Assembly (NCBI GenBank): GCA_965228875.1 | Contig: OZ245843.1 | Span: forward strand, 2,028,616 to 2,092,615 | Length of the DNA stretch: 64,000 nucleotides | Source of the DNA: Thalassobaculaceae bacterium | GTDB taxonomy: Bacteria; Pseudomonadota; Alphaproteobacteria; Thalassobaculales; Thalassobaculaceae | Reading direction: 5' to 3' | Shown here: positions 39,362 to 53,004 of the stretch, one piece after another | How positions within the stretch are numbered: the first letter of the stretch is position 1 | How the letters are laid out: every line of letters starts with the position of its first letter | The notes under the pieces: generated by a model | The model's input: only the letters and a program-made list of their open reading frames with translations | The model's database searches: none | What the model was told of the DNA's origin: nothing | Translations under genes and position numbers: made by a program

Positions 39362-40801
39362 ATGCTGCGGGCGATAGCACTGTTGGGCGCGGCTCTCGCT
39401 AACGGTCTCGTCGCCTGTCTCGTCCTCGGCCCGTCCATCGGTCCGGCCAACGCACTGGACGCCTCCAGGTTCGACCCGCCGCCCGGGACCTCCACACCGC
39501 CCGGGACTTCCACACCGACCGGGACCGGCGCGCCGCTGCCGTCCCCCCTTCCCGCCCGCGCGCCCGCCCCCTCGCCGGAGGCCGACCCGACCGGTGTGGA
39601 GAACCGCGACGCGATCGCCGTGGTGATCGGCAACCGGCGCTACGCCCACGGTCTGCCGGAGGTCCGCTACGCCGAAAACGATGCCCGGGAGGTCCGGCGG
39701 TTGCTGGAGACGGTACTGGGCTACCGGGACGGCAACATCATCGACCTGCGCAACGCCTCCCAGGCGGAAATGCTGTCGGTCTTCGGCAATGCCGCCGATC
39801 ATCGCGGCAAGCTCTGGTCGTTCGTGCGACCCGGCGTCTCCGACGTGTTCGTCTACTACTCGGGCCATGGCGTGCCCGGGCTGCGCGACCGACGCGGCTA
39901 TCTGCTGCCGGTCGACGCCGACCCGGCGACACCGGAGATCAACGGCCTGTCCGTCGACCTTCTGCTTGGCAACCTCGCCAAGCTGGAGACCCGGTCGACG
40001 GTGGTCATGATCGAAGCCTGTTTCTCCGGCAACTCCGCAGCGGGCTGGCTGATCGGCTCGGCGTCGCCGGTCTTCGTGCGGCGGGCGCCGGCCGTCCGAC
40101 CCGAAGGCATCACGGTGATCTCCGCCGCTCGCGGCGATCAGGTCGCAAGCTGGGACGAGGAGGCGCGGCTCGGCCTGTTCACCCGCCATGCCATGGACGC
40201 GCTGCTGCGCGGCTTCGCCGATACCGGGGCGGCCGGCAACGGCGACGGTGCCGTCACGCTCGGCGAACTGGAGGCGTATCTCGATTCCGAGATGTCCTAT
40301 GCCGCGCGCCGACGGTTCCGCCGCGCCCAGCAGGCCAGCGTCCAGGGCGATCCGAAGACGGTGCTGGTGCCGGCGGTGCGTCGGCCGGCACCCCGTCCCG
40401 CACCCGCCGCGTCCCTGGCGGCCGTCCCGCCCCCGAGGTCTCCACTGCCGACCGTTGCCCGCCCGGCACCGCAGTCGGGCCGGTACCCGCCGCACGGACC
40501 GAAGGTCGCAGACGGTCAGACCTTCGCGCAGCGCCACTGGCCCGAGATCCGGGGTCGGATCCTCGACTACTACCGGCGCCAGGGCGGCTCCTGGGACTAT
40601 CGCGGCGGCAAGGGCGCCTACGAGCAGGGGGAGCGCATCTCGCGCATCGAGTCCTGGCGGGTCTTCGCGGTGGCTCCAGCCCACCTGGACATGGTCGTGA
40701 CCTACCATTGGTTCGGCGGCGGACGCGACGAACGGGCGGAAGCGAACTTCCGGCTGTCGGTCGGCGCCGACGCGCTGTCGGTCGCGAAGATGTGGCGATG
40801 A
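39362..40801 (+). CDS. Exported caspase-family (peptidase C14) protein with an unknown C-terminal domain
   Basis: Signal peptide, AVVIGN.RY, YAENDA, FVYYSGHG (His169), YLLPVD, IEACFSG (Cys220), GLFT. Confidence 0.9.
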   Translation: MLRAIALLGAALANGLVACLVLGPSIGPANALDASRFDPPPGTSTPPGTSTPTGTGAPLPSPLPARAPAPSPEADPTGVENRDAIAVVIGNRRYAHGLPEVRYAENDAREVRRLLETVLGYRDGNIIDLRNASQAEMLSVFGNAADHRGKLWSFVRPGVSDVFVYYSGHGVPGLRDRRGYLLPVDADPATPEINGLSVDLLLGNLAKLETRSTVVMIEACFSGNSAAGWLIGSASPVFVRRAPAVRPEGITVISAARGDQVASWDEEARLGLFTRHAMDALLRGFADTGAAGNGDGAVTLGELEAYLDSEMSYAARRRFRRAQQASVQGDPKTVLVPAVRRPAPRPAPAASLAAVPPPRSPLPTVARPAPQSGRYPPHGPKVADGQTFAQRHWPEIRGRILDYYRRQGGSWDYRGGKGAYEQGERISRIESWRVFAVAPAHLDMVVTYHWFGGGRDERAEANFRLSVGADALSVAKMWR

Positions 40802-42438
40802 TCGCGCCACTCCGTTGGGCCTCGGCTCTCCTCGCCCTGGTCGTGTGGCTCTGCGGCGCGCACCCGCTGCCGGCAGCGGCGGATGACGGCTGGACCCGCG
40901 CGCTGCTGTCATCGGCCGAGCGTCTCTGGAACCCGCTCCCCCCGGGGAGCCGGATCGCCCTGCGGCCCCTCGACCCCGACGACAGCGGCCTGCCTGACGG
41001 CCTGCTGCGCGAGGTCGAGCAGGCGCTGGCAGCGGCTCTGCTGGCGACGGCACCGCCCGGTGGGGCGATCGCGACACGGCGCGATCTGCCGGCGGTCTGG
41101 GAGGAGGTGGAGAGTTTCGCCGACGCACCGACCCGTCGGTTGCTGGCCGACGCGGCGGTCGATGCGGTGGTGGTTCCCGCGATCGGGGAGACGGCGGACG
41201 GGGTCGGGGTGTCCGGAGTTCTGATATCGGTCGGCGAGGGCGACGCGGGCACGGTGCTGGCGACCCTGCCGGGGGTGGCGCTGCCGGTGGATGTCGGCCG
41301 TTTCGATCTTGCCGACGCGGCCGCCGCAGCTCGGCGCCTCGGCGTGGCGCTTGCCGAGGGTCTGCGCCTGTCTTCCGACCCGGTCGCCCAGTTCGCGGTC
41401 CGGATCGAGCGCCACGGGCCGCGCAGCGACCTGACCGACTGGTTCGGCGCCATGGTCGAAGGCTGGCTGTCCCGCCGCCTGGCGGAGCCCCCACGATACA
41501 TCGCGCGTTCCTTGCGGGACCTGGGCGCGCCGCCGGCGGATGCCACCGTCCGCCTTGAGATGGAGGCCTGGGACCAACGGGAGGGGCGGGTCGACGTCCA
41601 GGCGCGAGCCGCCATGGATGGCGCCAGGGCGGCGGCGACGGTGCGGGTCGCGGCCGCCTCGATCCCGGCGGCCTTCCGGCCCCTGACCCGTGACGGTGGG
41701 CGGATCGGACGCGGCCTGTTCGCCGCTGCCGCAACCTACGTTCCCGACCGCCGGACCGATCCCGTGGAAGCCGGGTTCGCCGCGCGGGTTCTGGCGCGCG
41801 CCGCCGTGATCGACGACCGCCTGCGGCAGGGCGATGGGCCGCACAGGGGCGTCGGCCAGGACGCCGTGGCGCGGGCCATGCGAGGGCTCGAGCGGGCGAT
41901 CCCCCACGAGGAGATCTGGCGGAACCTGCCGGCCGACAGCGGGACGGTCGCACGCGCGGTCCGCGCCCGGGTGGCGGCCGTGGGTGGGGCCGACGCCCCG
42001 CGCCTCGAGGCGGCCGTCGACCGCGCCCTTCACCGCGACGGGGAGCCGTTGCGCGCCCGGCTCACGGTCCGCGGCGGCCGGGCCTTCGTCGCGGCCTATG
42101 CCTGGCAGGCCGATGATACGGTGGTTCGGATCGCCCCCACCGGCCTCCAGGCCCGGCCGGTCGAACCGGAACGCCGGCTTTCCATCCCCTTCCCCGGCGA
42201 GGCCGAGGTCGCCGCGGCGGCGATGCCGGGCTCGCTGGAGACGATGGAGGCGGTGATCGTGGTCGCGTCGGCCATGCCGTTCGCCGCCGATGCGCTGGCG
42301 CCGGCCGCGGCCGGATCGCCGGACGCGAGCCGCGCGGCAGCGGTCGCCATGAGCGGATTCCTCGACGCTCTGGCCCGGCTCGACCTGGCGCGGGTCCGGC
42401 TGGCAGTCCTCCCCTACCGGGTCCGTGCGGGCGAGTGA
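40798..42438 (+). CDS. Exported protein with a CsgG/FlgO-like N-terminus and DUF4384-like C-terminus
   Basis: ATGA overlap with the caspase gene; signal peptide ending AAA; RIALRP...ATRRDLPAVWEE; DRALHRDGEPL...AYAWQADDTVVRIAP...EAVIVVAS. Confidence 0.65.
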   Translation: MIAPLRWASALLALVVWLCGAHPLPAAADDGWTRALLSSAERLWNPLPPGSRIALRPLDPDDSGLPDGLLREVEQALAAALLATAPPGGAIATRRDLPAVWEEVESFADAPTRRLLADAAVDAVVVPAIGETADGVGVSGVLISVGEGDAGTVLATLPGVALPVDVGRFDLADAAAAARRLGVALAEGLRLSSDPVAQFAVRIERHGPRSDLTDWFGAMVEGWLSRRLAEPPRYIARSLRDLGAPPADATVRLEMEAWDQREGRVDVQARAAMDGARAAATVRVAAASIPAAFRPLTRDGGRIGRGLFAAAATYVPDRRTDPVEAGFAARVLARAAVIDDRLRQGDGPHRGVGQDAVARAMRGLERAIPHEEIWRNLPADSGTVARAVRARVAAVGGADAPRLEAAVDRALHRDGEPLRARLTVRGGRAFVAAYAWQADDTVVRIAPTGLQARPVEPERRLSIPFPGEAEVAAAAMPGSLETMEAVIVVASAMPFAADALAPAAAGSPDASRAAAVAMSGFLDALARLDLARVRLAVLPYRVRAGE

Positions 42439-42513
42439 CGCGCCGACGATCGCCCGCACCCATCGAACACCACGACGATTGCGTGTGGCCGAGCTCCGAC
42501 GCACACTGTCGGG

Positions 42514-42538
42514 GGAAAACCCGCCCGCGCCTTCCATG
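42514..42538 (+). promoter_or_regulatory. Repeated promoter-like motif, copy 1 (GGAAAA...TTCCATG)
   Basis: GGAAAACCCGCCCGCGCCTTCCATG, 30 bp before ATG 42569. Confidence 0.6.
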
Positions 42539-42568
42539 AACCCGCCGCAACCAATGGAGGGCGCGGTC

Positions 42569-43555
42569 ATGACAAAGGCGGTGACGCGAATGACGGGGCG
42601 GATGATAGCGCTGGCGATCGTCGGCAGTCTGCTGATCTCCTGCGCCTCGGCGGCGACCGGCCTTCGGGCTGGTGAACTGACGCCCGGCCGGGGACTGGAA
42701 GCTGGCCCGCTGACGGTGCTGGTCATGGGAGAGGACGGACACCGTAATCTGGTGCCGCGCGACGACCCCGCCTTTCGCCGCGTCGTCGCCACCCTGCAGG
42801 AACTCCTCGACCGCCGAGGGTTCAGGGTCGTCGACGAGGAGGCGATCGCCGCCGATCTTGCCTGGGACTCGACCGTCGGTCGGGACAAGATCGACGTGCT
42901 CGAAGTCGCTAAGCTCGCCAATGCGAGCGGGCGGGCGTCGAGCCGGGTGCAGGCGGCGGCGCTGTTCCGCATCGAGGGCGCCTATCGCGACCTGCGATAC
43001 GCGACGCGGATCGATCTCCGGCTGTCCGGCGAACTCTACGACGTCCGCAGCAACCGGTTCCTCGGCGCCTTCGAGGTGCCAGCGGAGTCCGTGACCGCCC
43101 CGGGGCGCTGCCTCTCGGCCGCCTGCGCGTCTCACGCGGTCGGCGAGCGCGCAGGCGATCTGGCGGTCGAGTTGGGCGCCGTGCTCGCCCGCAGACTGGC
43201 AGCCCTGGCCCCGCCCGAGGAGACGGTCACGGATGGCGCGCGGACGTTCGAGTCCGTCTATACGGTCACCTTCCGACACCTCTCCACCGAAGACGCCCTG
43301 TCCATTATCGACGTCATGACCGACGGCTTTCCCGGATACCGCAGCCACGATCTTCTGCGAAGCGGTACCGCCCTGAGACGCTACACCTATGCCACGACCG
43401 CCGGCGCGAACGAGATTGAGCGTTGGCTTACCCTGTTGCTGCTCGACATGGGGCTCGACCCGCAGCGCGAGATCCTGCTGGCGGTCCGCGACGGCGACAT
43501 CCGCATCGAGCGGGTTCTGCCGGCCGCTCCGGCGTCTCAGGCGGCCCGTCCCTGA
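42569..43555 (+). CDS. Exported or lipoprotein hypothetical (CsgG/TolB-N-like alpha/beta domain)
   Basis: GGAGG RBS; signal with possible lipobox LISC; LQELLDRRGFRVVDEEAI; LYDVRSNRFLG. Confidence 0.7.
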   Translation: MTKAVTRMTGRMIALAIVGSLLISCASAATGLRAGELTPGRGLEAGPLTVLVMGEDGHRNLVPRDDPAFRRVVATLQELLDRRGFRVVDEEAIAADLAWDSTVGRDKIDVLEVAKLANASGRASSRVQAAALFRIEGAYRDLRYATRIDLRLSGELYDVRSNRFLGAFEVPAESVTAPGRCLSAACASHAVGERAGDLAVELGAVLARRLAALAPPEETVTDGARTFESVYTVTFRHLSTEDALSIIDVMTDGFPGYRSHDLLRSGTALRRYTYATTAGANEIERWLTLLLLDMGLDPQREILLAVRDGDIRIERVLPAAPASQAARP

Positions 43556-43617
43556 AAGAGTTCCGCCCCGGGACACTTCCGGCCCGGGAAAATTCCGGTC
43601 CTCCGGCGATCGATGAC

Positions 43618-43642
43618 GGAAACCGGGCCTCGCCCTTCCATG
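43618..43642 (+). promoter_or_regulatory. Repeated promoter-like motif, copy 2
   Basis: GGAAACCGGGCCTCGCCCTTCCATG, 31 bp before ATG 43674. Confidence 0.6.
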
Positions 43643-43673
43643 ACCGCAGGAAGACGGCAGAAGGGGCAGGGCA

Positions 43674-44084
43674 ATGGACGACGGTGCGACCACGGGAGCG
43701 ATGACGGAGATCGCGCTGGCCTTGGCCATGGCGTTCTTTTGCATCCTCGTTCTGGCCCTGGTGTCCATGGGCAACCCGCACGCCTCGGTCGACCCGGCAC
43801 TCTCCGCCGAGCGCGTTGAGACTGCCGGTCCCGGGACGCCGCCGCGTCCCCTCGAGGACGACGAGCGCCTGATCCTGTTCCACGCCGACCGGTACCTGGC
43901 GCCGGACGGGAGCTCTGTCGACCCGGCTTCGCTTGCCGGCGAACGGGTCGTGCTCGCCGTCGATCCAAACCTGCCGCTCGCCCGGATCCTCGCCGGCAGG
44001 TCGGCAATCCCCGGCAGTCAGGTCCGGATCACGCCTCTCGATTCCGCCTGGATCGATCATCTCGCCGCAGGAGGTCCCCAATGA
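43674..44084 (+). CDS. ExbD/TolR-like single-TM protein
   Basis: MTEIALALAMAFFCILVLAL TM with an acidic residue; C-terminal VVLAVDPNLPLARI resembles the ExbD periplasmic domain. Confidence 0.65.
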   Translation: MDDGATTGAMTEIALALAMAFFCILVLALVSMGNPHASVDPALSAERVETAGPGTPPRPLEDDERLILFHADRYLAPDGSSVDPASLAGERVVLAVDPNLPLARILAGRSAIPGSQVRITPLDSAWIDHLAAGGPQ

Positions 44085-44878
44085 GACTGCCGATGAGACT
44101 CCCGACAAGACTGCCGACATCCACCGTCCTGCCACTCCTGACTGTCCTCGTCCTGACCCTGGCGGTCCCACCGTCGGAGGCCGCCCGCCCGGCGTCGGAG
44201 GGCACCGCGACGCGGTCGGAGGTGCGTCGCATGGTGGTCCAGGAAGCGTTGCGCAGCGACCGGGTCCCACCCTCCCTCGCGCTGGCCGTCGCCGAGGCGG
44301 AATCGGACTTCGTCGCCGACGCGCTCAGCCCGGCCGGCGCACGCGGGGTGATGCAGATCATGCCGGCGACCGCACGCGGCGAGTTCGGTGTCACCGCCGA
44401 CAGGCTCTGGAACCCGCGCCTCAACATCCAGCTCGGCGTGGCTTTCCTGGACCAACTGATCCGGCGCTACGACGGGCGCTGGGACCTGGCCCTGTCCCAC
44501 TACAACGGGGGCTCCCGCGTCGGTATGGGAGCGGCGGCGCGGGTGATCCCGGCAACCCGCCCCTACGTCGACAAGGTGCTCTCGGTGGAACGGCGCTATG
44601 CCCGCGACGACGCCGCCGTGGCGTTGATCGCGGCCGCCCGCGACGCCAATGCCGATCTCGCCGCGCGGGCCGAACGCCAGGAGGCCGTCGCCGGGGTCGA
44701 GAGGCGGACCGACGACCGGGTGGAACGTCGCCGCCACTTCATGACATTGGCCGACGCGGCACTGGACACCGCCCGCGCGCGTCACCGCAGCCGGGGCGAG
44801 AGGCTGGGTGCCTCGGAACTCCTGGACCGCATCGCCGCGCGCAAGGCCCGCTTTCGGGCGCTCCTGAGCGATGGCTGA
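44081..44878 (+). CDS. Lytic transglycosylase (SLT domain) with a helical C-terminal extension
   Basis: Signal peptide, AEAESDF, GARGVMQIMPATA, ALSHYNGG, TRPYVDKV; ATGA overlap. Confidence 0.93.
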   Translation: MRLPMRLPTRLPTSTVLPLLTVLVLTLAVPPSEAARPASEGTATRSEVRRMVVQEALRSDRVPPSLALAVAEAESDFVADALSPAGARGVMQIMPATARGEFGVTADRLWNPRLNIQLGVAFLDQLIRRYDGRWDLALSHYNGGSRVGMGAAARVIPATRPYVDKVLSVERRYARDDAAVALIAAARDANADLAARAERQEAVAGVERRTDDRVERRRHFMTLADAALDTARARHRSRGERLGASELLDRIAARKARFRALLSDG

Positions 44879-44958
44879 CACGGCGAGCAACCGGGACGTG
44901 CAAGATGACGCAACCTAATCTAGAGTTCCGACGCCCGATGGCTGGCCGGGACACGGCG

Positions 44959-46596
44959 ATGGACGGAATCTCGACGGAACGCGCGCTGCTTACCGGTGCG
45001 ATCAGCCCGCAACTGGACGCGGCGTTCCGGACCGTGGCCGATGCCGATCTCGGCGCCGGTCCCAAATACCCGCCGGCGACCGTCCGCGCCCTGGCCCGCA
45101 CGGTGGTGGCCCGCGCCTACGGCAAGCCGATGCTGGAACTCTGCCACCTGCTGCGGGTGGCGGATGCGGTCGGCGGCCGCCACGGGTGGCCGGCCCTGTT
45201 CTTCGGCGTCCAGGTCGCGCGCGGCGCGGCCTTCCGCGCCCAGATCCAGGAAGGCGCCCGACGATGCCCCGCCTTCGGCACGGATTTCACGCTCGGCGCC
45301 GAGAGCGTAACCGTCGTCTATCCCGACGCCCCGTTCTCCATCGGCTACACCCGGATGGGATTTCTGGCCGCGCTGCTGGAACTGATGGTGACCGCCCTCG
45401 GTTTCCGTGCGGTGGACACCGCGATCCGCGCCTGGCTCGACGACCGGTTCGAGAGCGGCAGCGCACCGCCGCACGCCAACGCGCTGTCGCGGATGTTCTA
45501 CGACCATCTCAAGGACCATCTCGCCACCGCGCAGAGTCTGCGGGTGTTCGCGCGCCTGATCGCCTTTCTCGAAGCCGACCGCGGTCGCGGCTTCACCCTG
45601 GACGACCTCGACGACCGGGCGGTGCTCGACTACTGGTGCCGGGCCGCCGAAGCGGACGGCGACGACGCGGCGGAGCTGCGCGGCTTCCGGGCAGTTACCG
45701 AGCGGGTCGGCCAGCTGCGCACGGCCCTGCAGGCCGCGTTCGAGCGCCACGCCGTAGACAGTGCCCGGCCGGTCGGTCCGGACCGCAGCCTTGGCGAGGT
45801 CGATCCGGACACCGTCCTCTCGGCCCTGGAGACCCATGACGCGGAGGCGGACGAGCTGCGCCGACTGGAGGCGGCGCCGGCGACCGCCGTGAAGTTCCTG
45901 ACCGGTCGGGAGGCCGGCGAGCTCGACCTGATCGCGCGCCTCGGCCCGCATGCGGTTCCCCTGGCGCTCTCGGTCCTGCGCTGCGCAACGTTCGGAAGCC
46001 TGCAGTCCCGGCTCAGCCAGGCGCTGCGCCGCCGCGCATCGCAGGAGGAGACCGCCCGGCTGATCGCTCTGGACGGCTGCGAAACCTACGAGCGACGCCT
46101 CGGCGCCTGGCACACCCTGGAAACGCGTCTCGACCGGATGGCGCTGGCCGCGCTGGCGGTGCTGATCGAGGCCGACCGCGCGGAAGCGGCGCTCGAGGTT
46201 CTGGCACGGTTGCCCCAGTCGGACCTGAGCGGCCTGCGGGCGCACCTGCCGAACGTCGAGGCGGGGAACGTGATCGCTCTGCGTCCGGGGGGCACGGCCG
46301 GCATGGTGGCGGCGCTCGCCGACCCGCGTGTCGTGGGCGGCAAGGTCGCCGGCCTGGTCGGCGACGCGCGGCAGGCCCTGCGCGGGTTGGCCCGGTCGGG
46401 CTTCTCGCCCGATGCCCGCAGAACCCCGGCGGTCGTCGACGGTATGGCGGCCGGCGCTCCTCTGGTCCGCCGGTTGCGCGCCCGGCTGGCGGCGGTCCGC
46501 ACCGCCGCGGAGCTGCGCCTGCCGGAGGACGGATTCGAGGCGGACGGGCATCGGTTCTCCACCGGGCTCGACGCCCTCTACGGGAGACGACCGTGA
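44959..46596 (+). CDS. Cytoplasmic hypothetical protein with an internal ECF-sigma-like (region 2/4) segment; alternative starts 44905 or 44938
   Basis: 545-aa coding-like ORF; DDLDDRAVLDYW...GFRAV and LTGRE...LG...LA...GSLQSRLSQALRRR; the sigma call is a by-eye alignment. Confidence 0.55.
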   Translation: MDGISTERALLTGAISPQLDAAFRTVADADLGAGPKYPPATVRALARTVVARAYGKPMLELCHLLRVADAVGGRHGWPALFFGVQVARGAAFRAQIQEGARRCPAFGTDFTLGAESVTVVYPDAPFSIGYTRMGFLAALLELMVTALGFRAVDTAIRAWLDDRFESGSAPPHANALSRMFYDHLKDHLATAQSLRVFARLIAFLEADRGRGFTLDDLDDRAVLDYWCRAAEADGDDAAELRGFRAVTERVGQLRTALQAAFERHAVDSARPVGPDRSLGEVDPDTVLSALETHDAEADELRRLEAAPATAVKFLTGREAGELDLIARLGPHAVPLALSVLRCATFGSLQSRLSQALRRRASQEETARLIALDGCETYERRLGAWHTLETRLDRMALAALAVLIEADRAEAALEVLARLPQSDLSGLRAHLPNVEAGNVIALRPGGTAGMVAALADPRVVGGKVAGLVGDARQALRGLARSGFSPDARRTPAVVDGMAAGAPLVRRLRARLAAVRTAAELRLPEDGFEADGHRFSTGLDALYGRRP

Positions 46597-47144
46597 CCGG
46601 CCGGTGGCAGGATCTCGACGGGACGCAGCGGGCGCTGGTTGCGGCAGTCTTCGCCGCGCTCGACGCCACGGAACAGTTGGACACCGTGCGACCGCGGGAC
46701 GACGACGCGGCACGGCCCCTCGTCTCCCCGTCTCCGTCGCTGATCTGGTCGTCGCTCATGAGCGGCCGGGAGCTGCCCGACGGAGTGCGGAACGATGACG
46801 ACCTGGAGGCGTTGCTCGCCCGGGCGGCCCGGGCGGTCTTCCCGACGGCCGCCGCGGCGGCGACCCCCGGAGCCGGGCTCGACCGACAGGTCGGGGACGT
46901 GCGCCTGCGGACCGTTCCTTCCCGGGCCGACGCCCGGCAGACTTATCTGATCCTCAGCGTCGCGCCGTCCTCCGCGCCGCAACCGCCGATGCCCGCCCGC
47001 CTGATCGTCGTCGCCGACGGCGGATCGCCCGTCGGGATCGATCTGCCCCCGCCGGTCGACGGCACGGTGCAGGTCCTGCTCGCGGATGACGCCGCCATCC
47101 TCGTTGCCTTGACGGCGCCGGACTCCCGCATTTACCTCGTGTGA
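46593..47144 (+). CDS. Cytoplasmic two-domain hypothetical protein with a poly-Ala linker (anti-sigma-like)
   Basis: GTGA overlap; helical N-terminus, FPTAAAAAT linker, beta-rich C-terminus. Confidence 0.55.
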   Translation: MTGRWQDLDGTQRALVAAVFAALDATEQLDTVRPRDDDAARPLVSPSPSLIWSSLMSGRELPDGVRNDDDLEALLARAARAVFPTAAAAATPGAGLDRQVGDVRLRTVPSRADARQTYLILSVAPSSAPQPPMPARLIVVADGGSPVGIDLPPPVDGTVQVLLADDAAILVALTAPDSRIYLV

Positions 47145-47183
47145 GGGTTGAACGGCGCGGGTTGAGCCGATGGATCGGGTTGC

Positions 47184-48377
47184 ATGAGAGGACGGCTTCG
47201 GGTGGTCGTCGCCACCACGGACGGGCCGAGCACGGTCCGGCGGATCACGCCGGAGGACCCGGCGCTGCGCTCCGTCGTCTGTCTCGCGGGCACCGCCGAA
47301 GCCTTACCGATCTCCACCGAATACGACGCCTTCGTGCGACGGCCCACCGGCGTGGTGGAACGGGACACCGGCCATGGGGTCTACCGTGTCGATGTCGACC
47401 GGCCGATCGATTCCGGTCGGAGCTGGCAGCTCGGCCTCTATCTCGCCCATCGCCTGAAAGCGGCGGATCGTCTCGCCGAGGACGACCAGCCGGCGGAGGC
47501 CATCGTCTGGGCCACGGGAACGGTCGACACCGATCTGAACATCGGCCCGGTCGAGCGGGTTGCCGACAAGGCCCGCCGCTCGGTCGACCTGATCCGTTCC
47601 GGGCCGCCAGTGCTGTCGGTCGCCGCTGCCGCCTGCGCCGACTCCCTCCCCGCCGGGAGCGAGGCCCTGGCCGCGGACCGGATGGAGACGGTGTTGCACC
47701 GTCTGCACCTGACGCCCCCAGCGACCGGCGCGCAAGGCGGCCGCCGGCGTTTGTCGGCAACCGTGCTTCTGGCCATCCTCCTGATCGGCACCGGAGCCGC
47801 GGCCTGGATCGCCCTGCGCCCCCCGGACCCAGCCGGGCCACCCGCCCGCGAGATGCTGCAGGGCGGCACCTCCATAGCCGGCACCGCCGCCGAAGCGCCG
47901 CTACCTTTCGATCCGCGCGACGTGGTCTTCGACGTGCTCGAGTCCCGTCCTCGAGACGGGGTTTGCGCTCCAGGCGCGACGGTCGATCCGGCAATTCCGT
48001 CGCCGCTCGGCGTCTGCGCCGTCGTCTTCCGCGCCCGGAACGCCGGGCGACGGCCGGCGCGGATCCGGCTCTACGGCGCCGTGCAGGGATCCGTGCGTGA
48101 ATACGCGTCCCGCCGCCGGCACAGCGAACTCGTCGACGCCTCACTGGCACCCGGGGAGAGCGCGACGGTGCGGGTGCAGCCGCCCGACTGGGTACGCCGG
48201 GCACTGGTCGTTCGAGGCCTGTTGGTGGTGACGCAGCGCGACAACCTCCAGGTCGACCGGGCCTTGACGTCGATCGACCTGTTGTCGGCGGGCGAACTCG
48301 ACGCCCTGGCCGGCAGCCTGCGCGACCTCGGCGCCGACGTGAGGGAGATTTTCCATCGGGTGACGCCGGCGCGCTGA
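47184..48377 (+). CDS. Membrane-anchored Lon-type (S16-like) protease domain with a C-terminal extracytoplasmic domain
   Basis: DSGRS80W...WAT111G...GPVERVADK129; TM at about residues 190-211; C-terminal Cys pair. Confidence 0.7.
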   Translation: MRGRLRVVVATTDGPSTVRRITPEDPALRSVVCLAGTAEALPISTEYDAFVRRPTGVVERDTGHGVYRVDVDRPIDSGRSWQLGLYLAHRLKAADRLAEDDQPAEAIVWATGTVDTDLNIGPVERVADKARRSVDLIRSGPPVLSVAAAACADSLPAGSEALAADRMETVLHRLHLTPPATGAQGGRRRLSATVLLAILLIGTGAAAWIALRPPDPAGPPAREMLQGGTSIAGTAAEAPLPFDPRDVVFDVLESRPRDGVCAPGATVDPAIPSPLGVCAVVFRARNAGRRPARIRLYGAVQGSVREYASRRRHSELVDASLAPGESATVRVQPPDWVRRALVVRGLLVVTQRDNLQVDRALTSIDLLSAGELDALAGSLRDLGADVREIFHRVTPAR

Positions 48378-48400
48378 AAATCCGCTCTCGCCCGTCCATG
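48375..48400 (+). promoter_or_regulatory. Repeated promoter-like motif, copy 3
   Basis: TGAAAATCCGCTCTCGCCCGTCCATG, 35 bp before ATG 48436. Confidence 0.55.
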
Positions 48401-48435
48401 GCCCGGTGGAGAACGTACCGCCGGAGACCCGAGCC

Positions 48436-48981
48436 ATGGCCCCATCCCCCATTCAGACCACCGTTTCCGCCGCCGCGGCCGCGCTCGGCCTGGCGGTCGC
48501 GCTATCGGCCTGCGTCGCCACCGCACCGCCGGTTGCCGAGGGCATCGGCTACCGTGAGGCGCGCTTCGCCGAGGTCGAAGCCATGCGCGCCTACCGTGCC
48601 TGCCGAGACGAGGGAATGGCGCTCGACCGTCAGGCCCGCGCCGGTGGCGAGGCCGGGCGGTTTCTCGCGGTCGCGCGGGTTCTCGAAGGCTGCGAGGCCG
48701 ATCTCGGGCCGGTGGCCGAGGCGCTGAACGTGGAGGAACGGATGCGGGCCTATGCCGTCGCCGTTCAGAGTCGTCTCAAGGGCGGCGACGTCGCCGCCGC
48801 ACGCCAGGGCCTGGAACGGTTCGACGCGGCCTTCCCCGGCCGCGACCTGTTCTTCGACGACGGGGCCTCGTTCATCGAGACGATGTCGGCCATTCTTGCC
48901 GGCGGGGTGTCGGCGGGTGCCGCCAACATTCCGAGGCCCCTGGCGGAGGATCTCGCCCGCATCGACCGGTGGAGCCGGTGA
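48436..48981 (+). CDS. Helical (TPR-like) lipoprotein
   Basis: GGAG RBS; lipobox LSAC; helical body with a further Cys pair. Confidence 0.75.
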   Translation: MAPSPIQTTVSAAAAALGLAVALSACVATAPPVAEGIGYREARFAEVEAMRAYRACRDEGMALDRQARAGGEAGRFLAVARVLEGCEADLGPVAEALNVEERMRAYAVAVQSRLKGGDVAAARQGLERFDAAFPGRDLFFDDGASFIETMSAILAGGVSAGAANIPRPLAEDLARIDRWSR

Positions 48982-49856
48982 TGCGGGCCCTCCGGTTCGC
49001 GGCGATGGCCACGGCGATCGTCTGCCTCGCCGGGCCGGCAACCGCCGAGGAGGCGCCGGCCCAGGCCCCGGTGTGGGCGCCCGTGGCGAGCGAGCGCCTC
49101 GTCCGCCTCCCGGCCGGCTACCTCGAGAAGGCGGTCGAGCGGGATTTCCGGGACTCGCCGCTGGCGGCGGCGATGGAAGAGCAAGCGAGCGCCCTCGAAG
49201 GAAGCGCCGCCTCCCTTGCCGAGTTGCAGGCAGCCGCGGAGAGCGCACGCGGCCCGATCCGCGACGATCTTCGGCATCAGTTTCTGGTCGCCAAGCAGGA
49301 CTACGTCTCGCTCATGGGCGCGCGTCAGGACCTGGACCGGCAGCGGGTCGATACGCGCCTGCGCCTCTACCGCCGGCTGCTGGCCCGGATCGAGCGTGCC
49401 GGCGACCCCGGCTCGGACCCCGCGCTTGCCGCCCTGGTCGAGCGGCGCACGGCCGCCCTGAAGCGCTTCGAAGGGACGGCGGGGGCGGTCGACATGAAGC
49501 TGTTCGCCGCCTCCGCCGCACAGGAGAGCCGCTATGCGCAGGAGTATCGGCGGCACGCGACGGCGGTCGAGGACCTGGTGCGCGCGATCGACGCCCATCC
49601 CATGAACGCCGCTCCCGTGGTCGACGGCCGCTCGGTCGGCAAGGCCGACTACCTGCGGCACCTGATCGCCGCGGCCGAGACCGACGCGGCGCTGCTCGAT
49701 CAGAAGGACCTTGTGCTCGCCTACATGGCCAAGCTGGTCGCACTCGACGCCATGGCCCTGGCCGACGAGGTCGACGGCGCGCGGGATCCGGAGGACGCCG
49801 GCGGCGACCTTCGGGACGTCACTGCCGCCGTCGAGTTCTTTACCGCTCCCAACTGA
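48981..49856 (+). CDS. Exported coiled-coil hypothetical protein
   Basis: TGATG coupling; signal peptide ending ATA; heptad-rich helical sequence. Confidence 0.75.
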   Translation: MRALRFAAMATAIVCLAGPATAEEAPAQAPVWAPVASERLVRLPAGYLEKAVERDFRDSPLAAAMEEQASALEGSAASLAELQAAAESARGPIRDDLRHQFLVAKQDYVSLMGARQDLDRQRVDTRLRLYRRLLARIERAGDPGSDPALAALVERRTAALKRFEGTAGAVDMKLFAASAAQESRYAQEYRRHATAVEDLVRAIDAHPMNAAPVVDGRSVGKADYLRHLIAAAETDAALLDQKDLVLAYMAKLVALDAMALADEVDGARDPEDAGGDLRDVTAAVEFFTAPN

Positions 49857-49872
49857 TCCGATGGAGGATGCG

Positions 49873-50259
49873 ATGCCGTCGAAGAGAGCCGTCCTGACCG
49901 TGGCCCTGACGCTGGCGATGTTCACGGGGCCGGCGGTCGCCGATCCGCTGGAGAGCATGGAGCGCGAGCGCGCACGGCTGATCACCACGCTGCTGGACCC
50001 GGACCGCGAAGCCCATGCCCGGCTTGCCGAGGCGGATACGATCCGGCGACGCCTGATCGACCTGGAACGCATCGCCCTGCGCGATCCGGCGACCGCGACC
50101 GATACCAGACCGATCGCGCGCCGGGCTTTCGACGATTACGACCTGACCTTCCTGGCCCATGCCTCGGTCGAGCGGGACATGGCGGTGCTCGACCTGTGGC
50201 TCGATCGCCTCGGTCTGTCGACCGGGCGGATCATGGCGGCCCGGGTGGGACGGCGGTGA
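49873..50259 (+). CDS. Exported small helical hypothetical protein
   Basis: GGAGG RBS; signal ending AVA; DPLESMERERARL, RRLIDLERIAL, YDLTFLAHAS. Confidence 0.75.
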   Translation: MPSKRAVLTVALTLAMFTGPAVADPLESMERERARLITTLLDPDREAHARLAEADTIRRRLIDLERIALRDPATATDTRPIARRAFDDYDLTFLAHASVERDMAVLDLWLDRLGLSTGRIMAARVGRR

Positions 50260-50783
50260 TGCGCGCCGCGACCGCGCCCCGCGTCGTTGCCCGGACGCTC
50301 GGCGACGCCTCGAGGGCGCTGGCGCTCCTGCTCGGCGCGGTGAGCGTCGGTCTGGCATCCGCCGCCTGGCTGACAGGCGAACCGGCGGGCGGACTGGCGA
50401 CCCGCGGTGCGACAGTGCTCGGACCGACCTTCATCGCCGGGATCGTCGGTCTCACCCTGCTGGCGCTGCACGCCGCCGTCAGACTGTGGCGCGATCCGCA
50501 CGACGCGCCCTGGCTCGCCGCCGGTCTGCAGGCGGCCTCCGGCATCGCCACACTGGCCCTGACCTTCACCCTGCTCGGCATCGGCCTCGGTATCGCCAGC
50601 CTCTCGGAGGCCCAGATCGGGCCGGACACGGTCAACGCGGTCATCGCCGAACTGACGGCCCGGTTCGCGCTGGCGTTCAGCACGACGGTAATCGGCCTTC
50701 CGCTGGCGGCGGTTCTCCGGGCCGTGCTGCTGGTTCTGGCGGCGCGCGGCGGCCGACAGGGCGGACCGGGAGACGAGCGATGA
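50259..50783 (+). CDS. Compact MotA/TolQ/ExbB-like proton-channel protein
   Basis: TM helices ATLALTFTLLGI and FALAFSTTVIGL resemble ExbB LGLLGTVxGM and ALxTTAxGL. Confidence 0.72.
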   Translation: MRAATAPRVVARTLGDASRALALLLGAVSVGLASAAWLTGEPAGGLATRGATVLGPTFIAGIVGLTLLALHAAVRLWRDPHDAPWLAAGLQAASGIATLALTFTLLGIGLGIASLSEAQIGPDTVNAVIAELTARFALAFSTTVIGLPLAAVLRAVLLVLAARGGRQGGPGDER

Positions 50784-51346
50784 GGTTCCTGCTGTTCAAC
50801 ATCGTCGTCGGTGTCGCGCTGGCCTACCTCCTGGTCATCGACCGCCAAGACCGTGCCGCCGTCGACCCCGGCACCATCGAAAGCCCCACGGCCTCGGTGT
50901 CCGGTCTTCCCTCGGATCCGCTTCCATCGGCCGGACCGCCGGCATCATCGCCGCTCCCACCGGATCCGGCACTGATCGCACCGGCACTGACCGCATCGGC
51001 GCGGCTCGTCCCCGCACGGCTCGTCCCGGACATTCGGGCCGTCCCTGACCTCGAAACGCCGCCACCCGCCGATGCGGGCCCGACCGTATCGGCACCAGCC
51101 GCGACCGTGCGCCCGTCATCGGATCAGGCCCTCGCTGTCCGGGCGACGGGACCCCGCACAGCCGAACACGACCTATCCATCCTTCGGGCTGGCGCCGGCC
51201 GGGACGACGCCAATGTCGATCCCGCCCGGACGGCCATGCCGGCCCGTTCCCGAACCACCACGCCGTCGTCGGCCGCCGCGCGCGGCCGCGACCTGCGGGC
51301 GCTCGCGCGCGACATGGAGAGCCGGTTCCTGACCGGCCTACGCTGA
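50780..51346 (+). CDS. N-terminal TM, Pro-rich linker and short C-terminal helix
   Basis: ATGA overlap; MRFLLFNIVVGVALAYLL; ARGRDLRALARDMESRFL. Confidence 0.7.
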   Translation: MRFLLFNIVVGVALAYLLVIDRQDRAAVDPGTIESPTASVSGLPSDPLPSAGPPASSPLPPDPALIAPALTASARLVPARLVPDIRAVPDLETPPPADAGPTVSAPAATVRPSSDQALAVRATGPRTAEHDLSILRAGAGRDDANVDPARTAMPARSRTTTPSSAAARGRDLRALARDMESRFLTGLR

Positions 51347-52294
51347 ATGCTCGGCCGGCGGTCGTGTCAGCGCCTGGGCGTGGGGGTGCCGCTCGCTCTC
51401 GCTCTGGCGCTCGCCGTGGCGGCCCTGGTCCCGCCGCCGGTCCGGCCGCCCCCGGCCCGGCTGTCGCCCTCGCCGCCGCCGATATCGACCGCGACAACGA
51501 CCCCCATGACCGAGATCGACGGCCTGGCAACCCTCCCGGACGATCGGTCGTCCGAGGTCGCCGTAACGCTAGCCGCCATCCGACTGCCGCCCCCACCGGC
51601 GGTCCCGGGGCCGAAAGACGCGGTCTCCGAGACGTCTAAGCCGGAGAGGTCGAGGTCGGGGGAACCCGGGCATGCGCCGTCGCCTCCAGTTCCTTCTGCC
51701 CCTGCCCCTGCCCCGGCGCCGCTCGACGGGACAGCGGAGACGCCGATAGCGAGCGACCCCGATCCCGCCGATCGACCACCGGTGACAGACTCCTCCCCGC
51801 GCGACCTGGCGGCCGGGGAAGCGGCGCTGCAGGCCATCGAGGCCGGCAGGGGTCCCGGACTCGTGCTGACTTGGCCAACCGATGCCGAATCCCGGCGCCG
51901 TATCGCCGCGTATCTCGCGCGCTGCGCCGGCCTGACGGTCGCGCTGCTGGCCGAGGGCCAGCTGTGGCGCCTGCAGGACCCGGCCGGCCAGGCGTGGCGT
52001 CCCGATCCGCTCGCGGTCTCGACCATCGTGCGACGCGCCGACGGGATCGCACCGGGCCTCGCCAATCGGCTTCGGGGCCGTCACGGCATCGAAGGCGGCA
52101 GCCCGGTCGCCGTGGTCGCGCGCCGCTACGACGCCCGACTGCTCGGCGGCCTGGGCCGGCTGGCGCCGCTGGGCGGGCGGATCCGCGCCGCCTATGCCGT
52201 CCGTGATGGGGCGCTCCTGGTGACGGCGGTGCGGATCGACGACGCAGCAATCGACGGCACGCTGCGCCTGGCCCGGTTGGACCGATGCGGCTGA
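51347..52294 (+). CDS. TonB/TolA-like architecture protein (TM, Pro-rich stalk, globular C-terminal domain)
   Basis: Starts immediately after the previous stop; LALALALAVAALV TM; long Pro/Ala-rich region; about 140-aa C-terminal domain. Confidence 0.6.
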   Translation: MLGRRSCQRLGVGVPLALALALAVAALVPPPVRPPPARLSPSPPPISTATTTPMTEIDGLATLPDDRSSEVAVTLAAIRLPPPPAVPGPKDAVSETSKPERSRSGEPGHAPSPPVPSAPAPAPAPLDGTAETPIASDPDPADRPPVTDSSPRDLAAGEAALQAIEAGRGPGLVLTWPTDAESRRRIAAYLARCAGLTVALLAEGQLWRLQDPAGQAWRPDPLAVSTIVRRADGIAPGLANRLRGRHGIEGGSPVAVVARRYDARLLGGLGRLAPLGGRIRAAYAVRDGALLVTAVRIDDAAIDGTLRLARLDRCG

Positions 52295-53004
52295 AGCCCG
52301 CCGGCCTCTGGCGGCTCGGGCGGGCCGTCGCGCTGACGTGCGGGATCGCGGCCGCGGCCGTGGGTACCGGTTGCGCGCCGCTTCCCGCCGACGGCCTCGT
52401 CGCCGAACCGGTGCCGGCGGAACACCGGCTTTCCGACGCGTTCTGGCGTCGGGCGCCCGCCTGCGTCCTGGTGCTGCCGGCGACGACGGACGCCACCGGC
52501 GGCGCGGTCAGCCCGCGGAGCGCCGAGCGGGCACTGGCGACGCATCTTTCCGGTCGGGTGGCGCGGGTGATCGGCCCGGACCGCAGAACCGCCGAGACCC
52601 GATATCTCGCGATCGACCTGCGCCGTCCGGAGGACCGCGCCCGCTATGCCGGGGTCTCCGGCTGCGGGCACGGCGTCGAGCTATCGGTCGCCGGGGGCCG
52701 ATCCTTCGCCCTCGTCTGGGCCGGCGCGACGCTGTCGCTGGAGGCCAGTCTTGTCGATCTGGCGAGCGGAGTGGTGCTGTGGACCTCAAGACACCGGGTG
52801 TCCCGCGGCGACGGCGGGTTGCCGGTCTCGCCGCTCGGCCTGCTCGTCGCGGTCGGCCGGGCCGGGCGGATTGCAACGGACCGCGACCTGACCGCGTCGG
52901 TGCTGGCCGATGGGCTGCGGGCGCTGACGGCGTCGCTGCCCGACACCCGCACTCACCGCACCTCGAGGAACTCCAGGGTCAGGCCGTTTTCGTCGCGGAA
53001 GTAG
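52285..53004 (+). CDS. DUF799/GNA1162-like lipoprotein
   Basis: Possible lipobox GTGC; PACVLVLP; LVDLASGVVLW; GGLPVSPLG. Confidence 0.65.
   Translation: MRLKPAGLWRLGRAVALTCGIAAAAVGTGCAPLPADGLVAEPVPAEHRLSDAFWRRAPACVLVLPATTDATGGAVSPRSAERALATHLSGRVARVIGPDRRTAETRYLAIDLRRPEDRARYAGVSGCGHGVELSVAGGRSFALVWAGATLSLEASLVDLASGVVLWTSRHRVSRGDGGLPVSPLGLLVAVGRAGRIATDRDLTASVLADGLRALTASLPDTRTHRTSRNSRVRPFSSRK

Follow-up and report, generated by a model that had tools for sequence, protein, structure and literature searches.

The analysed stretch of DNA (64,000 nucleotides from a Thalassobaculaceae bacterium, hereafter the window) carries a co-directional run of 15 genes, g1–g15, on the plus strand between positions 39362 and 53004, as seen in a third-codon-position GC frame plot together with the list of open reading frames (Table 1). 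An earlier note on this DNA had placed the locus at the same coordinates and described consecutive plus-strand genes, which was found to be correct except for their number, which is 15 and not 14, g11 having been omitted. The junctions that it quoted are all present in the sequence: ATGA overlaps at 40798, 44081 and 50780, a GTGA overlap at 46593, TGATG junctions at 48981 and 50259, and, at 51347, an ATG start immediately after a TGA stop with no spacer. Beyond these, g14 and g15 overlap by 10 nt, and the widest intergenic gaps lie before g3 (97 nt), g4 (118 nt) and g9 (58 nt). The flanking genes are, as noted before, unrelated to the cluster; they have housekeeping functions, with an arginase-family gene on the upstream side and genes for glyoxalase, LysR, DUF1194, TusA and dihydroxy-acid dehydratase on the downstream side.

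Table 1 Features of the cluster in window coordinates. PWM scores of the cluster's own motif copies are circular, the motif having been defined by our own pattern.
Feature	Position	Strand	Module	Description
Motif copy, weak	39271..39302	+		Upstream of g1; PWM 10.2 bits
g1	39362..40801	+	A	Exported caspase-family (C14) protease, Pro-rich linker, extra C-terminal domain
g2	40798..42438	+	A	Exported; DUF4384 domain near residues 410–490
Motif copy	42511..42542	+		Upstream of g3; PWM 26.7 bits
g3	42569..43555	+	A	Lipoprotein, LISC lipobox
Motif copy	43615..43646	+		Upstream of g4; PWM 30.7 bits
g4	43674..44084	+	B	136-aa bitopic inner-membrane protein, periplasmic domain after transmembrane helix
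g5	44081..44878	+	B	Exported SLT-family lytic transglycosylase
g6	44905..46596	+	C	563-aa cytoplasmic, mostly alpha-helical protein
g7	46593..47144	+	C	183-aa cytoplasmic protein, conserved P-x-x-AAA(S/T) stretch and Arg98 (alignment)
g8	47184..48377	+	C	N-terminal cytoplasmic Lon-like proteolytic domain, one transmembrane helix, periplasmic domain
Motif copy	48373..48404	+		Upstream of g9; PWM 32.5 bits, top match of genome
g9	48436..48981	+	D	Helical lipoprotein, LSAC lipobox, no family
g10	48981..49856	+	D	Exported helical/coiled-coil protein, no family
g11	49861..50259	+	D	Exported 132-aa protein, no family
g12	50259..50783	+	D	174-aa four-helix inner-membrane protein
g13	50780..51346	+	D	N-terminal transmembrane helix, then Pro-rich periplasmic stretch
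g14	51347..52294	+	D	N-terminal anchor, Pro-rich stretch, conserved strongly basic C-terminal domain
g15	52285..53004	+	D	Lipoprotein, distantly GNA1162-like

Most of the products are envelope proteins, and the lipoproteins, exported coiled-coil protein and Pro-rich transmembrane proteins described earlier are visible in the translations, while curated-family matches were obtained for the caspase and the lytic transglycosylase only. Pfam and NCBIfam scans detected no TonB, TolB, Pal, receptor or flagellar family among the 15 products and, with orthologues scanned too, no DNA-binding, nuclease or translocase family in any of them; family scans of the whole genome likewise placed no secretin or T2SSE-ATPase match inside the window, in agreement with the earlier note. 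Its CsgG-like proteins found no counterpart in the cluster. No known system matches the cluster, which maps onto nothing described in Pfam, NCBIfam, PADLOC or PHROGs and is in this respect undescribed, as had been proposed.

The exported caspase at the start of module A (g1–g3) was confirmed, with g1 matching Pfam Peptidase_C14 (5.8e-15), NCBIfam caspase_w_EACC1 ('caspase, EACC1-associated type'; 2e-21, under the family cut-off) and the PADLOC caspase (4.5e-6), and its translation showing a signal peptide and the motifs SGHG and EACFSG; both caspase motifs, SGHG and [DE]ACFSG, are present in 12 of 15 sequences. The DUF4384 assignment of g2 is weak for the window copy (0.051) but is reached at E<=0.01 by 9 of 10 orthologues, with one passing the gathering score. 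Three start candidates exist for g3 (42536, 42554 and 42569), the first of which falls within a promoter-like motif described below, and no PDB match, nor a Pfam match in any of 10 orthologues, was found. The caspase module is missing from most loci outside one clade, and module A is an accessory part of the cluster.

Module C comprises g6–g8. The g6 product, for which metagenomes gave 883 representative clusters, has no Pfam, NCBIfam or PDB match, and its AF2 model (pLDDT 91.7, pTM 0.87) retrieved nothing at E<=0.001 with Foldseek (top VIA Z 6.5). The transmembrane Lon-like protease recognized earlier in g8 was borne out by profile (Lon protease, 6.5e-6) and by fold, the structure model (pLDDT 86.5) matching Lon P-domains and RadA with E values from 7e-6 upwards and TM-scores of 0.5–0.6 on the target; it is a membrane-anchored Ser-Lys protease domain with invariant Ser80 and Lys129, followed by a transmembrane helix at about 186–210 and a beta-rich periplasmic domain with two invariant Cys. 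Prediction of the g6-g7-g8 complex gave a score of 0.84 (top of three controls 0.60), with runs sharing at least 93% of contacts and a partner pLDDT of at least 81. The score mark used is passed by 116 of 157 solved complexes and 2 of 215 mismatched pairs, counts that are only rough for the triad as author-built alignments and three chains were used. The predicted structure supports a bridging position of g7 between g6 and the Lon-like domain of g8. In the CalpL-CalpT-CalpS system of type III CRISPR, a Lon-family proteolytic domain signals without an AAA+ module; the Lon-type Ser-Lys domain of g8 likewise comes without an ATPase, and a small partner predicted to bind it is encoded beside it, but the cluster lacks a SAVED sensor, sigma factor and anti-sigma factor, its Lon-like domain is membrane-tethered with a periplasmic domain, and its large partner g6 matches no known fold.

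The envelope unit is formed by modules B and D (g4, g5, g9–g15). The lytic transglycosylase g5 was correctly recognized before (Pfam SLT, 2.4e-22; AESDF motif in the translation). The lipoprotein g9 has two invariant Cys besides its lipobox, 32 of the 36 loci with g12 also have g11 and g14, and g14, for which no PDB match was obtained, has a median pI of 10.7 and a net charge of +14 (33 sequences). GNA1162-like (DUF799) lipoproteins resemble g15 weakly over the same region in 3 of 8 sequences (Pfam 0.01 in the window copy and 2e-4 in 2 of 7 orthologues), with GNA1162 (4hrv; E 0.44) as the best PDB row, although all g15 scores fall under the curated cut-off. The usual partners of such lipoproteins are CsgG-like and DUF4810 lipoproteins, neither of which was found.

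The description of the cluster as PMF-driven leaned on an 'ExbB-like' g12 and an 'ExbD-like' g4, neither of which was upheld by the Pfam and PDB-profile searches, and MotA/ExbB and ExbD kinship, respectively, are not established. For g4, which also lacks an ExbD-profile match, the lead is Glu12, which is invariant in 19 of 19 aligned sequences and lies where the strongly conserved transmembrane helix meets the cytoplasm. For g12, whose third and fourth helices carry invariant Thr/Gly/Pro in the alignment, it consists of a motif match to MotA/ExbB over 24 columns (hhalign P 0.009–0.013, probability 3–4%) and a language-model atlas neighbour at 0.89 (192 of 256 features in common) with PF01618 on 47% of its members; at least 1411 relatives of g12 exist, and none of the 120 listed has a Pfam family. 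The g12 product is a candidate for a divergent MotA/ExbB-type channel.

The cluster genes were found to co-occur in other genomes and to be conserved far beyond the source genome. In an HMM scan of 60 related loci, g4–g12 and g14 occurred together in 22, B+D without C in 2, C alone in 14 and A+C in 3. Loci with the whole set come from several alphaproteobacterial families (GC 0.37–0.71); the full gene order is repeated in four loci of other families (GC 0.52–0.71), B+D is found at a GC of 0.37, and in L074, L076, L078 and L088 the content is kept while the order is shuffled. Within the order, g6 is present in 18 of 21 g12-holding genomes. The 15 genes constitute a real, modular system that is inherited vertically in marine Alphaproteobacteria.

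Operon starts were found to carry a promoter-like motif of two parts, GAAAACC-N12/13-(T/C)CCATA(G/A)C, that stops some 30 nt short of the start codon; in the window it stands before the first gene of each module. Only four matches above 10 bits occur in the window, all on the plus strand and before g1, g3, g4 and g9, and the strict pattern has six matches in the 4.96-Mb genome, including that before g3. Across loci, the motif precedes g4 in 16/29, g9 in 15/31, g3 in 6/19, g6 in 4/44 (in three of which g6 heads the triad alone) and g12 in 2/37 (both with g12 as first gene), and it was never found before the internal genes g2, g7, g8, g10, g11, g13, g14 and g15 (0/249). The sigma-type control of its own previously ascribed to the cluster was not found, as a whole-genome scan gave no sigma-70 family match inside the window; the regulator reading the motif is presumably encoded outside the cluster.

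Genome-wide, the PWM gave 12 matches above 16 bits, compared to one in a reversed control, and the best after the cluster's three sites precede, by Pfam, genes for a ComF-like protein, DprA, a 167-aa unknown protein and ComM. The genes dprA, comM and comF handle incoming transforming DNA. In related genomes, whose sites at these genes were outside the PWM training set, the motif was found at a fixed offset before dprA in 20/29 (above 10 bits), comM in 27/30 and comF in 22/30, while recA was preceded by it in only 3/30 and comEC of G000 had none. As its motif is common to dprA, comM and comF, the cluster probably belongs to a competence-type regulon, and the shared motif points to DNA uptake instead of the repair, contact or defence role suggested earlier. 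This link has been established for one family only, since none of 11 genomes from other families with g12 and DprA had a motif above 10 bits before dprA (top 8.0); four of these carry the motif before g4 and g9. The motif at dprA, comM and comF is also found in five genomes without the protease triad, so the triad is not the (only) regulator, contrary to the proposed induction by transmembrane proteolysis. The three genes occur also in genomes without the envelope unit and are thus not dependent on it.

Our tentative reading is that the cluster supplies the envelope machinery of a competence-type regulon and may be an apparatus for DNA uptake that works without a pilus. The genome (100% complete) encodes ComEC, and the envelope unit would bring DNA over the outer membrane, peptidoglycan and periplasm to it, filling a step for which the genome has no known machine. 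In such a machine, g12 and g4 would together form an inner-membrane unit driven by ions, of the MotA/ExbB-MotB/ExbD type, the anchored Pro-rich g13 and the very basic g14 would span the periplasm, the SLT enzyme g5 would open the peptidoglycan, and the outer part may be built from the lipoproteins g9, g15 and g3 and the helical proteins g10 and g11. The triad would be a separate complex on the cytoplasmic face, in which g7 links the helical g6 to the Ser-Lys protease domain of g8, whose periplasmic domain could act as a sensor of the envelope unit or couple to it; g1, the exported caspase, and g2 would be lineage-specific accessories. If true, this would be a previously unknown route of DNA into the cell. 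Such a role is disfavoured by the lack of any DNA-binding, nuclease or translocase family match in the cluster, by the restriction of the motif link to one family and by the G050 genome described below.

Known Gram-negative competence machines use a type IV pilus with secretin and ComEA, or the Helicobacter ComB type IV secretion system. The cluster resembles these in its motif-based co-regulation with dprA, comM and comF alongside a genomic ComEC, and in combining an envelope-spanning protein set with a peptidoglycan-opening enzyme. In contrast, its proteins are all outside those families, and no match to Secretin, the T2SSE pilus/secretion ATPase, HHH_3/ComEA-type, GTA_TIM, pilin or VirB11-type ATPase was found across the complete genome. 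ComX of streptococci governs an alternative-sigma competence regulon. There, as here, dprA and further DNA-processing genes share a single asymmetric promoter-type motif with the genes of an envelope apparatus, but phylum and motif differ, and neither recA nor comEC is a conserved member of the present regulon.

A Tol-Pal/TonB-like role in envelope maintenance or transport, with an alternative-sigma promoter common to dprA, comM and comF through one physiological state (stationary phase, starvation or stress) and no part in DNA uptake, appears less likely but is the most serious alternative. The small polytopic g12 with its bitopic partner g4, an acidic residue at the cytoplasmic end of the g4 helix, the Pro-rich anchored g13 and g14, the periplasmic coiled-coil g10 and the lipoproteins g9 and g15 all recall Tol-Pal and TonB-ExbB-ExbD, and g4 adjoins g12-g13 in the rearranged loci L074, L076, L078 and L085. 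The absence of the motif before dprA in other families fits this reading, as does B+D without dprA in G050 and G230; G050 (99% complete) holds B+C+D, and no dprA or comM (Pfam family) or comF (G000 protein as sole query) was matched in it. However, the 15 proteins and 64 orthologues gave no Pfam match to MotA_ExbB, ExbD, TonB_C, TolA, TolB, Pal or OmpA, and MotA_ExbB and ExbD are already matched elsewhere in the genome, 7 and 4 times, respectively. The cluster further differs in the four helices of g12 without a cytoplasmic domain, in Glu as the acidic residue and in the attached SLT enzyme and Lon-like triad, and three of the four best non-cluster motif matches precede comF, dprA and comM, with no heat-shock or envelope-stress gene identified among the top matches.

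Competence-associated wall remodelling or lysis, in which the SLT enzyme and exported caspase free DNA from kin or remodel the wall, is improbable. Murein hydrolases act in this way in the streptococcal competence regulon, and both the shared motif and the encoded SLT enzyme and exported protease would suit such a role, but nine conserved non-enzymatic envelope proteins, some membrane-embedded, exceed the needs of a secreted lysin, and outside one clade most loci lack the caspase module. Still less probable is a conflict or defence system in which protease signalling (caspase, Lon-like) answers attacks on the envelope by phages or competitors: the PADLOC and NCBIfam caspase matches, the predicted ternary complex of the Lon-like triad and the gain and loss of modules would agree with it, whereas no further PADLOC match below 0.001 was found among the 15 proteins, the cluster encodes no nuclease, NTPase or toxin-like effector, its caspase is exported and dispensable, and it occupies a conserved chromosomal site with the same housekeeping neighbours across genera instead of a variable island. 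Although modules do occur separately, a chance mosaic of neighbouring operons that serve separate, unrelated functions is very improbable and already disfavoured, since B, C and D occur together across families and GC contents, even when rearranged, and all modules carry the same rare motif.

The cluster proposed in the earlier note, a 14-gene run on the plus strand encoding an envelope machine, was recovered as consecutive genes by the third-position GC frame plot and the ORF table. The count was revised to 15 (g1-g15, numbered in order), the gene absent from the first count being g11, which encodes an exported protein of 132 aa. All quoted junctions were verified in the sequence (ATGA at 40798, 44081 and 50780; GTGA at 46593; TGATG at 48981 and 50259; TGA/ATG abutting at 51347), a 10-nt overlap of g14 and g15 could be added to them, and gaps above 50 nt occur only before g3, g4 and g9. 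The genes are here grouped into module A (g1-g3), the envelope unit formed by modules B and D (g4, g5 and g9-g15), and module C, the triad g6-g8. The flanks are indeed unrelated housekeeping genes, with an arginase family gene upstream and glyoxalase (minus strand), LysR, DUF1194, TusA and dihydroxy-acid dehydratase genes downstream; the glyoxalase-family gene runs convergently into g15, overlapping its final ~50 nt. The source genome is a single contig of 4.96 Mb with a GC content of ~0.70, of which the window covers 64 kb.

Only two of the 15 products, g1 and g5, passed a curated family threshold in Pfam. The g1 product is an exported caspase of the peptidase C14 type (5.8e-15, over the cut-off), for which 12 of 15 sequences contain SGHG as well as [DE]ACFSG, the motifs of the His-Cys dyad, and g5 encodes an SLT lytic transglycosylase (2.4e-22; 79.1 bits vs a cut-off of 21.3); both assignments agree with those made from the sequence. 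NCBIfam, PADLOC and PHROGs yielded nothing for the 15 products beyond g1 and g5: the SLT-type rows in PHROGs concerned g5 only, and PADLOC returned a caspase row (4.5e-6) and one weak row (0.0022), with no multi-component match to one defence system. When orthologues were searched against Pfam at E<=0.01, DUF4384 was matched by 9/10 sequences of g2 and a weak TPR_6 row by 1/9 of g9, while g3 (0/10), g10 (0/8), g11 (0/7), g13 (0/5) and g14 (0/8) gave no match. The g15 protein is weakly GNA1162-like, with 15.9-21.4 bits in 3/8 sequences (under the cut-off of 25.9) and 4hrv in the PDB at E 0.44. Profile searches of the PDB gave no significant row for g3, g4, g6, g7, g9, g10, g12 or g14; the best row of g7 was the Mu transposase DNA-binding subdomain (E 0.27, not significant), and g14 had no row under E 1. 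From the translations, lipoboxes were found in g3, g9 and g15, signal peptides in g1, g2, g5, g10 and g11, one N-terminal hydrophobic helix each in g4, g13 and g14, and four in g12. Ten of the 15 proteins are outside any described family.

Comparison of the regions upstream of g4 revealed a bipartite element, GAAAACC-N12/13-(T/C)CCATA(G/A)C, ending ~30 nt before the start codon. A degenerate pattern of this motif was matched upstream of g4 in 16/29 loci, g9 in 15/31 and g3 in 6/19, and less often upstream of g1 (2/15), g5 (1/24), g6 (4/44, three of the four being stand-alone triad loci) and g12 (2/37, both in loci with g12 in first place); upstream of internal genes there was none (0/249). A position weight matrix (PWM) built from 40 pattern-extracted sites gave only four matches above 10 bits in the window, all of them plus-strand sites; they precede g1 (weak), g3, g4 and g9. 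Because it is asymmetric, tied to one strand and constant in its spacing to the start codon, the motif looks like an alternative-sigma or activator-dependent promoter; it resembles sigma-32-type GAAA/CCCAT promoters. A scan for sigma-70 and terminator consensus sequences returned one promoter-like and one terminator-like site, both at chance level. The suggestion that the cluster carries sigma-type control of its own was not borne out, as the ten Sigma70_r2 matches of the genome all lie outside the window. An autoregulated sigma gene was likewise rejected, since none of the ten adjoins a motif match above 12 bits. Two of the ten sigma-70-family genes are RpoH-sized, and these are candidates for the factor reading the motif.

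Scanning the whole genome with the PWM yielded 12 matches above 16 bits, vs one in the reversed-sequence control. The three best were the cluster's own training sites, and the following matches, which were not in the training set, include sites upstream of genes for ComF-type, DprA and ComM proteins; the 167-aa protein and the 111-aa lipoprotein are possible additions to the regulon.

Coordinates and upstream motif scores of the cluster, the genes following motif matches in the source genome (G000), and other genes discussed in the text; L-numbers denote fetched loci
Feature	Position	Strand	Motif upstream	Basis or remark
Cluster, g1-g15	window 39362-53004	+		
ComF-type protein (double zinc ribbon + phosphoribosyltransferase)			22.8 bits	Pfam
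DprA			22.6 bits	Pfam
167-aa protein	L093:1908-2408	-	20.8 bits	No Pfam family; G000, outside window
ComM			20.3 bits	Pfam
111-aa lipoprotein	L095:227-559	+	18.1 bits	No Pfam family; G000, outside window
RecA			17.3 bits	Pfam
RpoH-sized sigma gene	G000:C1:116337		None	Outside window
RpoH-sized sigma gene	G000:C1:3319582		None	Outside window
Glyoxalase-family gene	window 52953-53402	-		
Tandem SLT paralogues	L079:16037-17459			Between g4 and g6
Tandem SLT paralogues	L081:16133-17553			Between g4 and g6

In related genomes the motif precedes dprA at a fixed offset, scoring above 10 bits in 20 of 29 usable loci and 6.6-9.4 bits in seven more, with two loci lacking it. It was found at a fixed offset before comM in 27/30 genomes and before comF in 22/30, the top score elsewhere in these ~3.6-kb loci being mostly below 8 bits. 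Within one family, the motif is common to the cluster and to dprA, comM and comF. At class level dprA had no motif above 10 bits in other families (0/11 loci), though g4 and g9 have it in four other families. Because the motif also precedes dprA, comM and comF in genomes without g6 and g12 (G022, G055, G008, G052 and G053), the triad is not its regulator, or at least not the only one. Of two further candidates for membership of the regulon, comEC of the source genome has no motif site, and recA was rejected, as the motif accompanies it in only 3/30 genomes. Upstream of recA in the source genome (L188, genome position 256908) the match overlaps a GAAC-N7-GTAC element that resembles an alphaproteobacterial SOS box; relatives retain this element and not the motif. 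Neither the cluster nor its triad nor the motif was found described in Pfam, NCBIfam, PADLOC, PHROGs or the literature searched on its families and on alphaproteobacterial competence, though supplementary tables of comparative papers may list these families under different names.

The assembly, 100% complete by marker genes, encodes one ComEC. The complete genome gave no match to the ComEA-type HHH_3 domain, the secretin (PF00263) or the T2SSE/PilB/VirB11-type ATPase (PF00437), the last two being marks of DNA uptake based on type IV pili, type II secretion or type IV secretion. With ComEC and its companions present and the families of the outer machinery unmatched, the inner-membrane and cytoplasmic half of transformation is thus kept, with no recognizable outer half. 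In Rhodobacter, according to a published account, DNA delivered by a gene transfer agent is imported by ComEC, ComF and ComM and integrated by DprA together with RecA (PMC10883770). In the present genome, the gene transfer agent marker GTA_TIM was not matched. No large envelope system other than this cluster lies under the motif.

The earlier note had called g12 ExbB-like and g4 ExbD-like, and of this the layout of g4 stood; family profiles matched neither protein, and the remote similarity of g12 to ExbB is weak. In g4, a single N-terminal transmembrane helix with an acidic residue close to the cytoplasmic side leads into a periplasmic domain, as in ExbD, TolR and MotB, where a conserved acidic residue at this place plays the corresponding role. 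This residue, Glu12, is invariant in 19/19 sequences and lies in a nearly invariant T-E-I-A-L-A-L-A-M helix start. In the alignment of g12, invariant Thr, Gly and Pro residues were found in helices 3 and 4, and together with Glu12 of g4 they recall stator units. At the level of profiles, g4 had no Pfam match, no row in the PDB and an hhalign probability of 0.6% against ExbD, and g12 had no Pfam match at E<=0.1 and no MotA/ExbB/TolQ row in the PDB at E<=10. Aligned to MotA/ExbB with hhalign, g12 covered 24-26 columns only, corresponding to the 'A-x-x-T-T-x-x-G-L' helix (P 0.009-0.073, probability 1-4%), and a deeper g12 alignment of 157 sequences brought no gain. The seven MotA/ExbB/TolQ (PF01618) and four ExbD matches of the genome are all located outside the window. 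In the language-model-based Atlas, PF01618 is annotated in 47% of the members of the first family-bearing neighbour of g12 (0.89, 192/256 features in common). Independent support for a partnership of g12 and g4 comes from rearranged loci, since g4 directly follows g12-g13 in three of these (L074, L076 and L078) and stands beside g12 in a fourth (L085).

The transmembrane Lon-like protease claimed for g8 was supported by both fold and catalytic residues. The N-terminal 180 residues of this 397-aa protein are highly conserved, with Ser80 and Lys129 invariant in an alignment of 28 sequences. A profile search of the PDB retrieved Lon protease 2 (6.5e-6), placing Lys129 opposite the second lysine in the catalytic 'V-K-E-K-L' stretch of Lon; Ser80 was equated with the Lon nucleophile by its position at the helix start, rather than from a printed alignment. 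The AF2 model (pLDDT 86.5) shows a P-domain, then a transmembrane helix and a periplasmic beta-rich domain with two invariant cysteines, and Foldseek gave Lon P-domains and RadA as its top rows (130 rows at E<=0.001; TM-score on target 0.5-0.6). No ATPase family was matched in Pfam or NCBIfam, and an AAA+ module was not found on the chain. The g6 protein (563 aa) was modelled confidently (pLDDT 91.7, pTM 0.87), and neither the PDB profile search nor two fold searches retrieved a solved structure related to it in sequence or fold: Foldseek returned none at E<=0.001, and the top VIA hits were helical bundles only (Z 6.5), the fold comparison covering mainly residues 316-543. Its best Atlas neighbour (0.85) has no family, and its own family comprises 883 representative clusters, the homologues listed being all 'hypothetical protein' or nameless.

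A three-chain prediction of g6, g7 and g8, which supports binding of both partners by g7, scored 0.84, vs 0.60 for the best of three controls; with an unrelated protein in place of g6, the score still reached 0.60. The score mark for a complex, reached by 116/157 solved complexes and 2/215 mismatched pairs, is a rough guide here owing to the use of own alignments and three chains. At least 93% of the contacts agreed between runs, with partner pLDDT of at least 81. In the predicted interfaces the N-terminal 80 residues of g7 (183 aa) lie on g6, and its residues 108-167 on residues 20-70 of g8. The g7 protein has a nearly invariant P-x-x-A-A-A stretch; that g7 is the protease substrate is a guess, because the A-A-A stretch is absent from the confident predicted contacts.

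From the shared motif, a putative promoter, we infer that the envelope unit may move DNA or ready the envelope for it. In this reading, g12 with g4 would act as an ion-driven unit, g5 would open the peptidoglycan for assembly, g14 would contact DNA, as its median pI of 10.7 suggests, and g8 would cleave a partner on a periplasmic cue. A more specific proposal, which we regard as unlikely, is that the envelope unit constitutes a third Gram-negative DNA-uptake machine, independent of type IV pili and type IV secretion and driven by g12 with g4 as a minimal MotA/ExbB-like stator. The basic g14, tethered by a Pro-rich segment, would then pass DNA over the periplasm to ComEC, and coupling to the cytoplasm would fall to the Lon-like protease complex of g6, g7 and g8. 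Several observations count against DNA uptake: no DNA-related family was found in any of the 15 proteins, the regulon link is confined to one family, one genome (G050) has the system and no match to dprA, comM or comF, and these three genes also occur in genomes without the system. The main rival explanation is that the cluster serves a Tol/Ton-like role in the envelope and has no more than a growth-state promoter in common with the competence genes; for g13 and g14, Pfam gave no TonB_C or TolA match, either for the window copies (E<=0.1) or for 5 and 8 orthologues, respectively (E<=0.01). We rate the system as lying outside every known kind, with an energizing principle that may be a divergent member of MotA/ExbB.

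If the DNA-uptake proposal were true, it would account for DNA uptake in the many marine Alphaproteobacteria that have comEC, comF, comM and dprA but lack pili. A functional link would also open a new route for horizontal gene transfer in the ocean, and ion-driven envelope motors, of which few are known, would gain another member. The common motif supplies a testable context, namely competence; in this genome, none of the marker families of the known machines that carry DNA through the outer membrane was matched. Should the link prove non-functional, there would still be novelty in the conserved regulon defined by the motif, in the triad with its membrane-tethered Lon-like protease, and in the confident g6 model, unmatched in two fold searches.

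Searching 41 relatives with g6 gave matches in 16, all of one family, and among the 63 genomes of the order, also one family, 35 have g6 and 21 have g12. Both genes are present in 18 of these 21; the remaining three are fragmented assemblies of 65-90% completeness. In a sample of the class, g12 occurs in 13/401 genomes including the source genome, the other 12 belonging to seven other families, and g12 has no fewer than 1411 relatives in the protein database (E<=0.01). The sizes of the g6 and g12 families mark the system as common yet unstudied in the cell biology of marine Alphaproteobacteria. Two genomes assigned to the same genus (G002 and G010) are only ~1.5 Mb yet scored as 99% complete, and g6, g12, dprA, comM, comF and recA were not found in them.

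HMMs of all 15 genes were run against 60 fetched loci, all found via g6 or g12 and some cut by contig ends. The genes do recur together elsewhere, with g4-g12 and g14 jointly present in 22 of the 60, so that the first refuting condition of the earlier note, a lack of co-occurrence in other genomes, does not hold. The envelope unit was seen without the triad in two loci (L082 and L087), the triad without B or D in 14, complete g1-g3 in 13, and modules A and C only in three. Identical gene order recurs at GC contents of 0.52-0.71, and the envelope unit even at 0.37. Within the family, the locus always lies between the arginase and DUF1194/TusA genes, whatever modules are present. The conserved site and the recurrence therefore indicate a chromosomal, old and modular system rather than a mobile island.

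Variants of the arrangement were also seen. In two genomes of another family, tandem SLT paralogues are located between g4 and g6, and in a 2.5-Mb genome from another family (G149; L084 and L160) dprA lies ~5 kb from a g11-g15 module. In one genome, G019, g6 is present as three paralogues and module D twice, distributed over three loci (L018, L019 and L077). Its locus L077 contains g9-g15 with g3, g8-like and g2-like genes and a caspase gene on the opposite strand, and L019 contains g4, g5, a g6 of 24% identity and g7, followed by a gene for a PcfJ-like protein (Pfam 2.3e-4).
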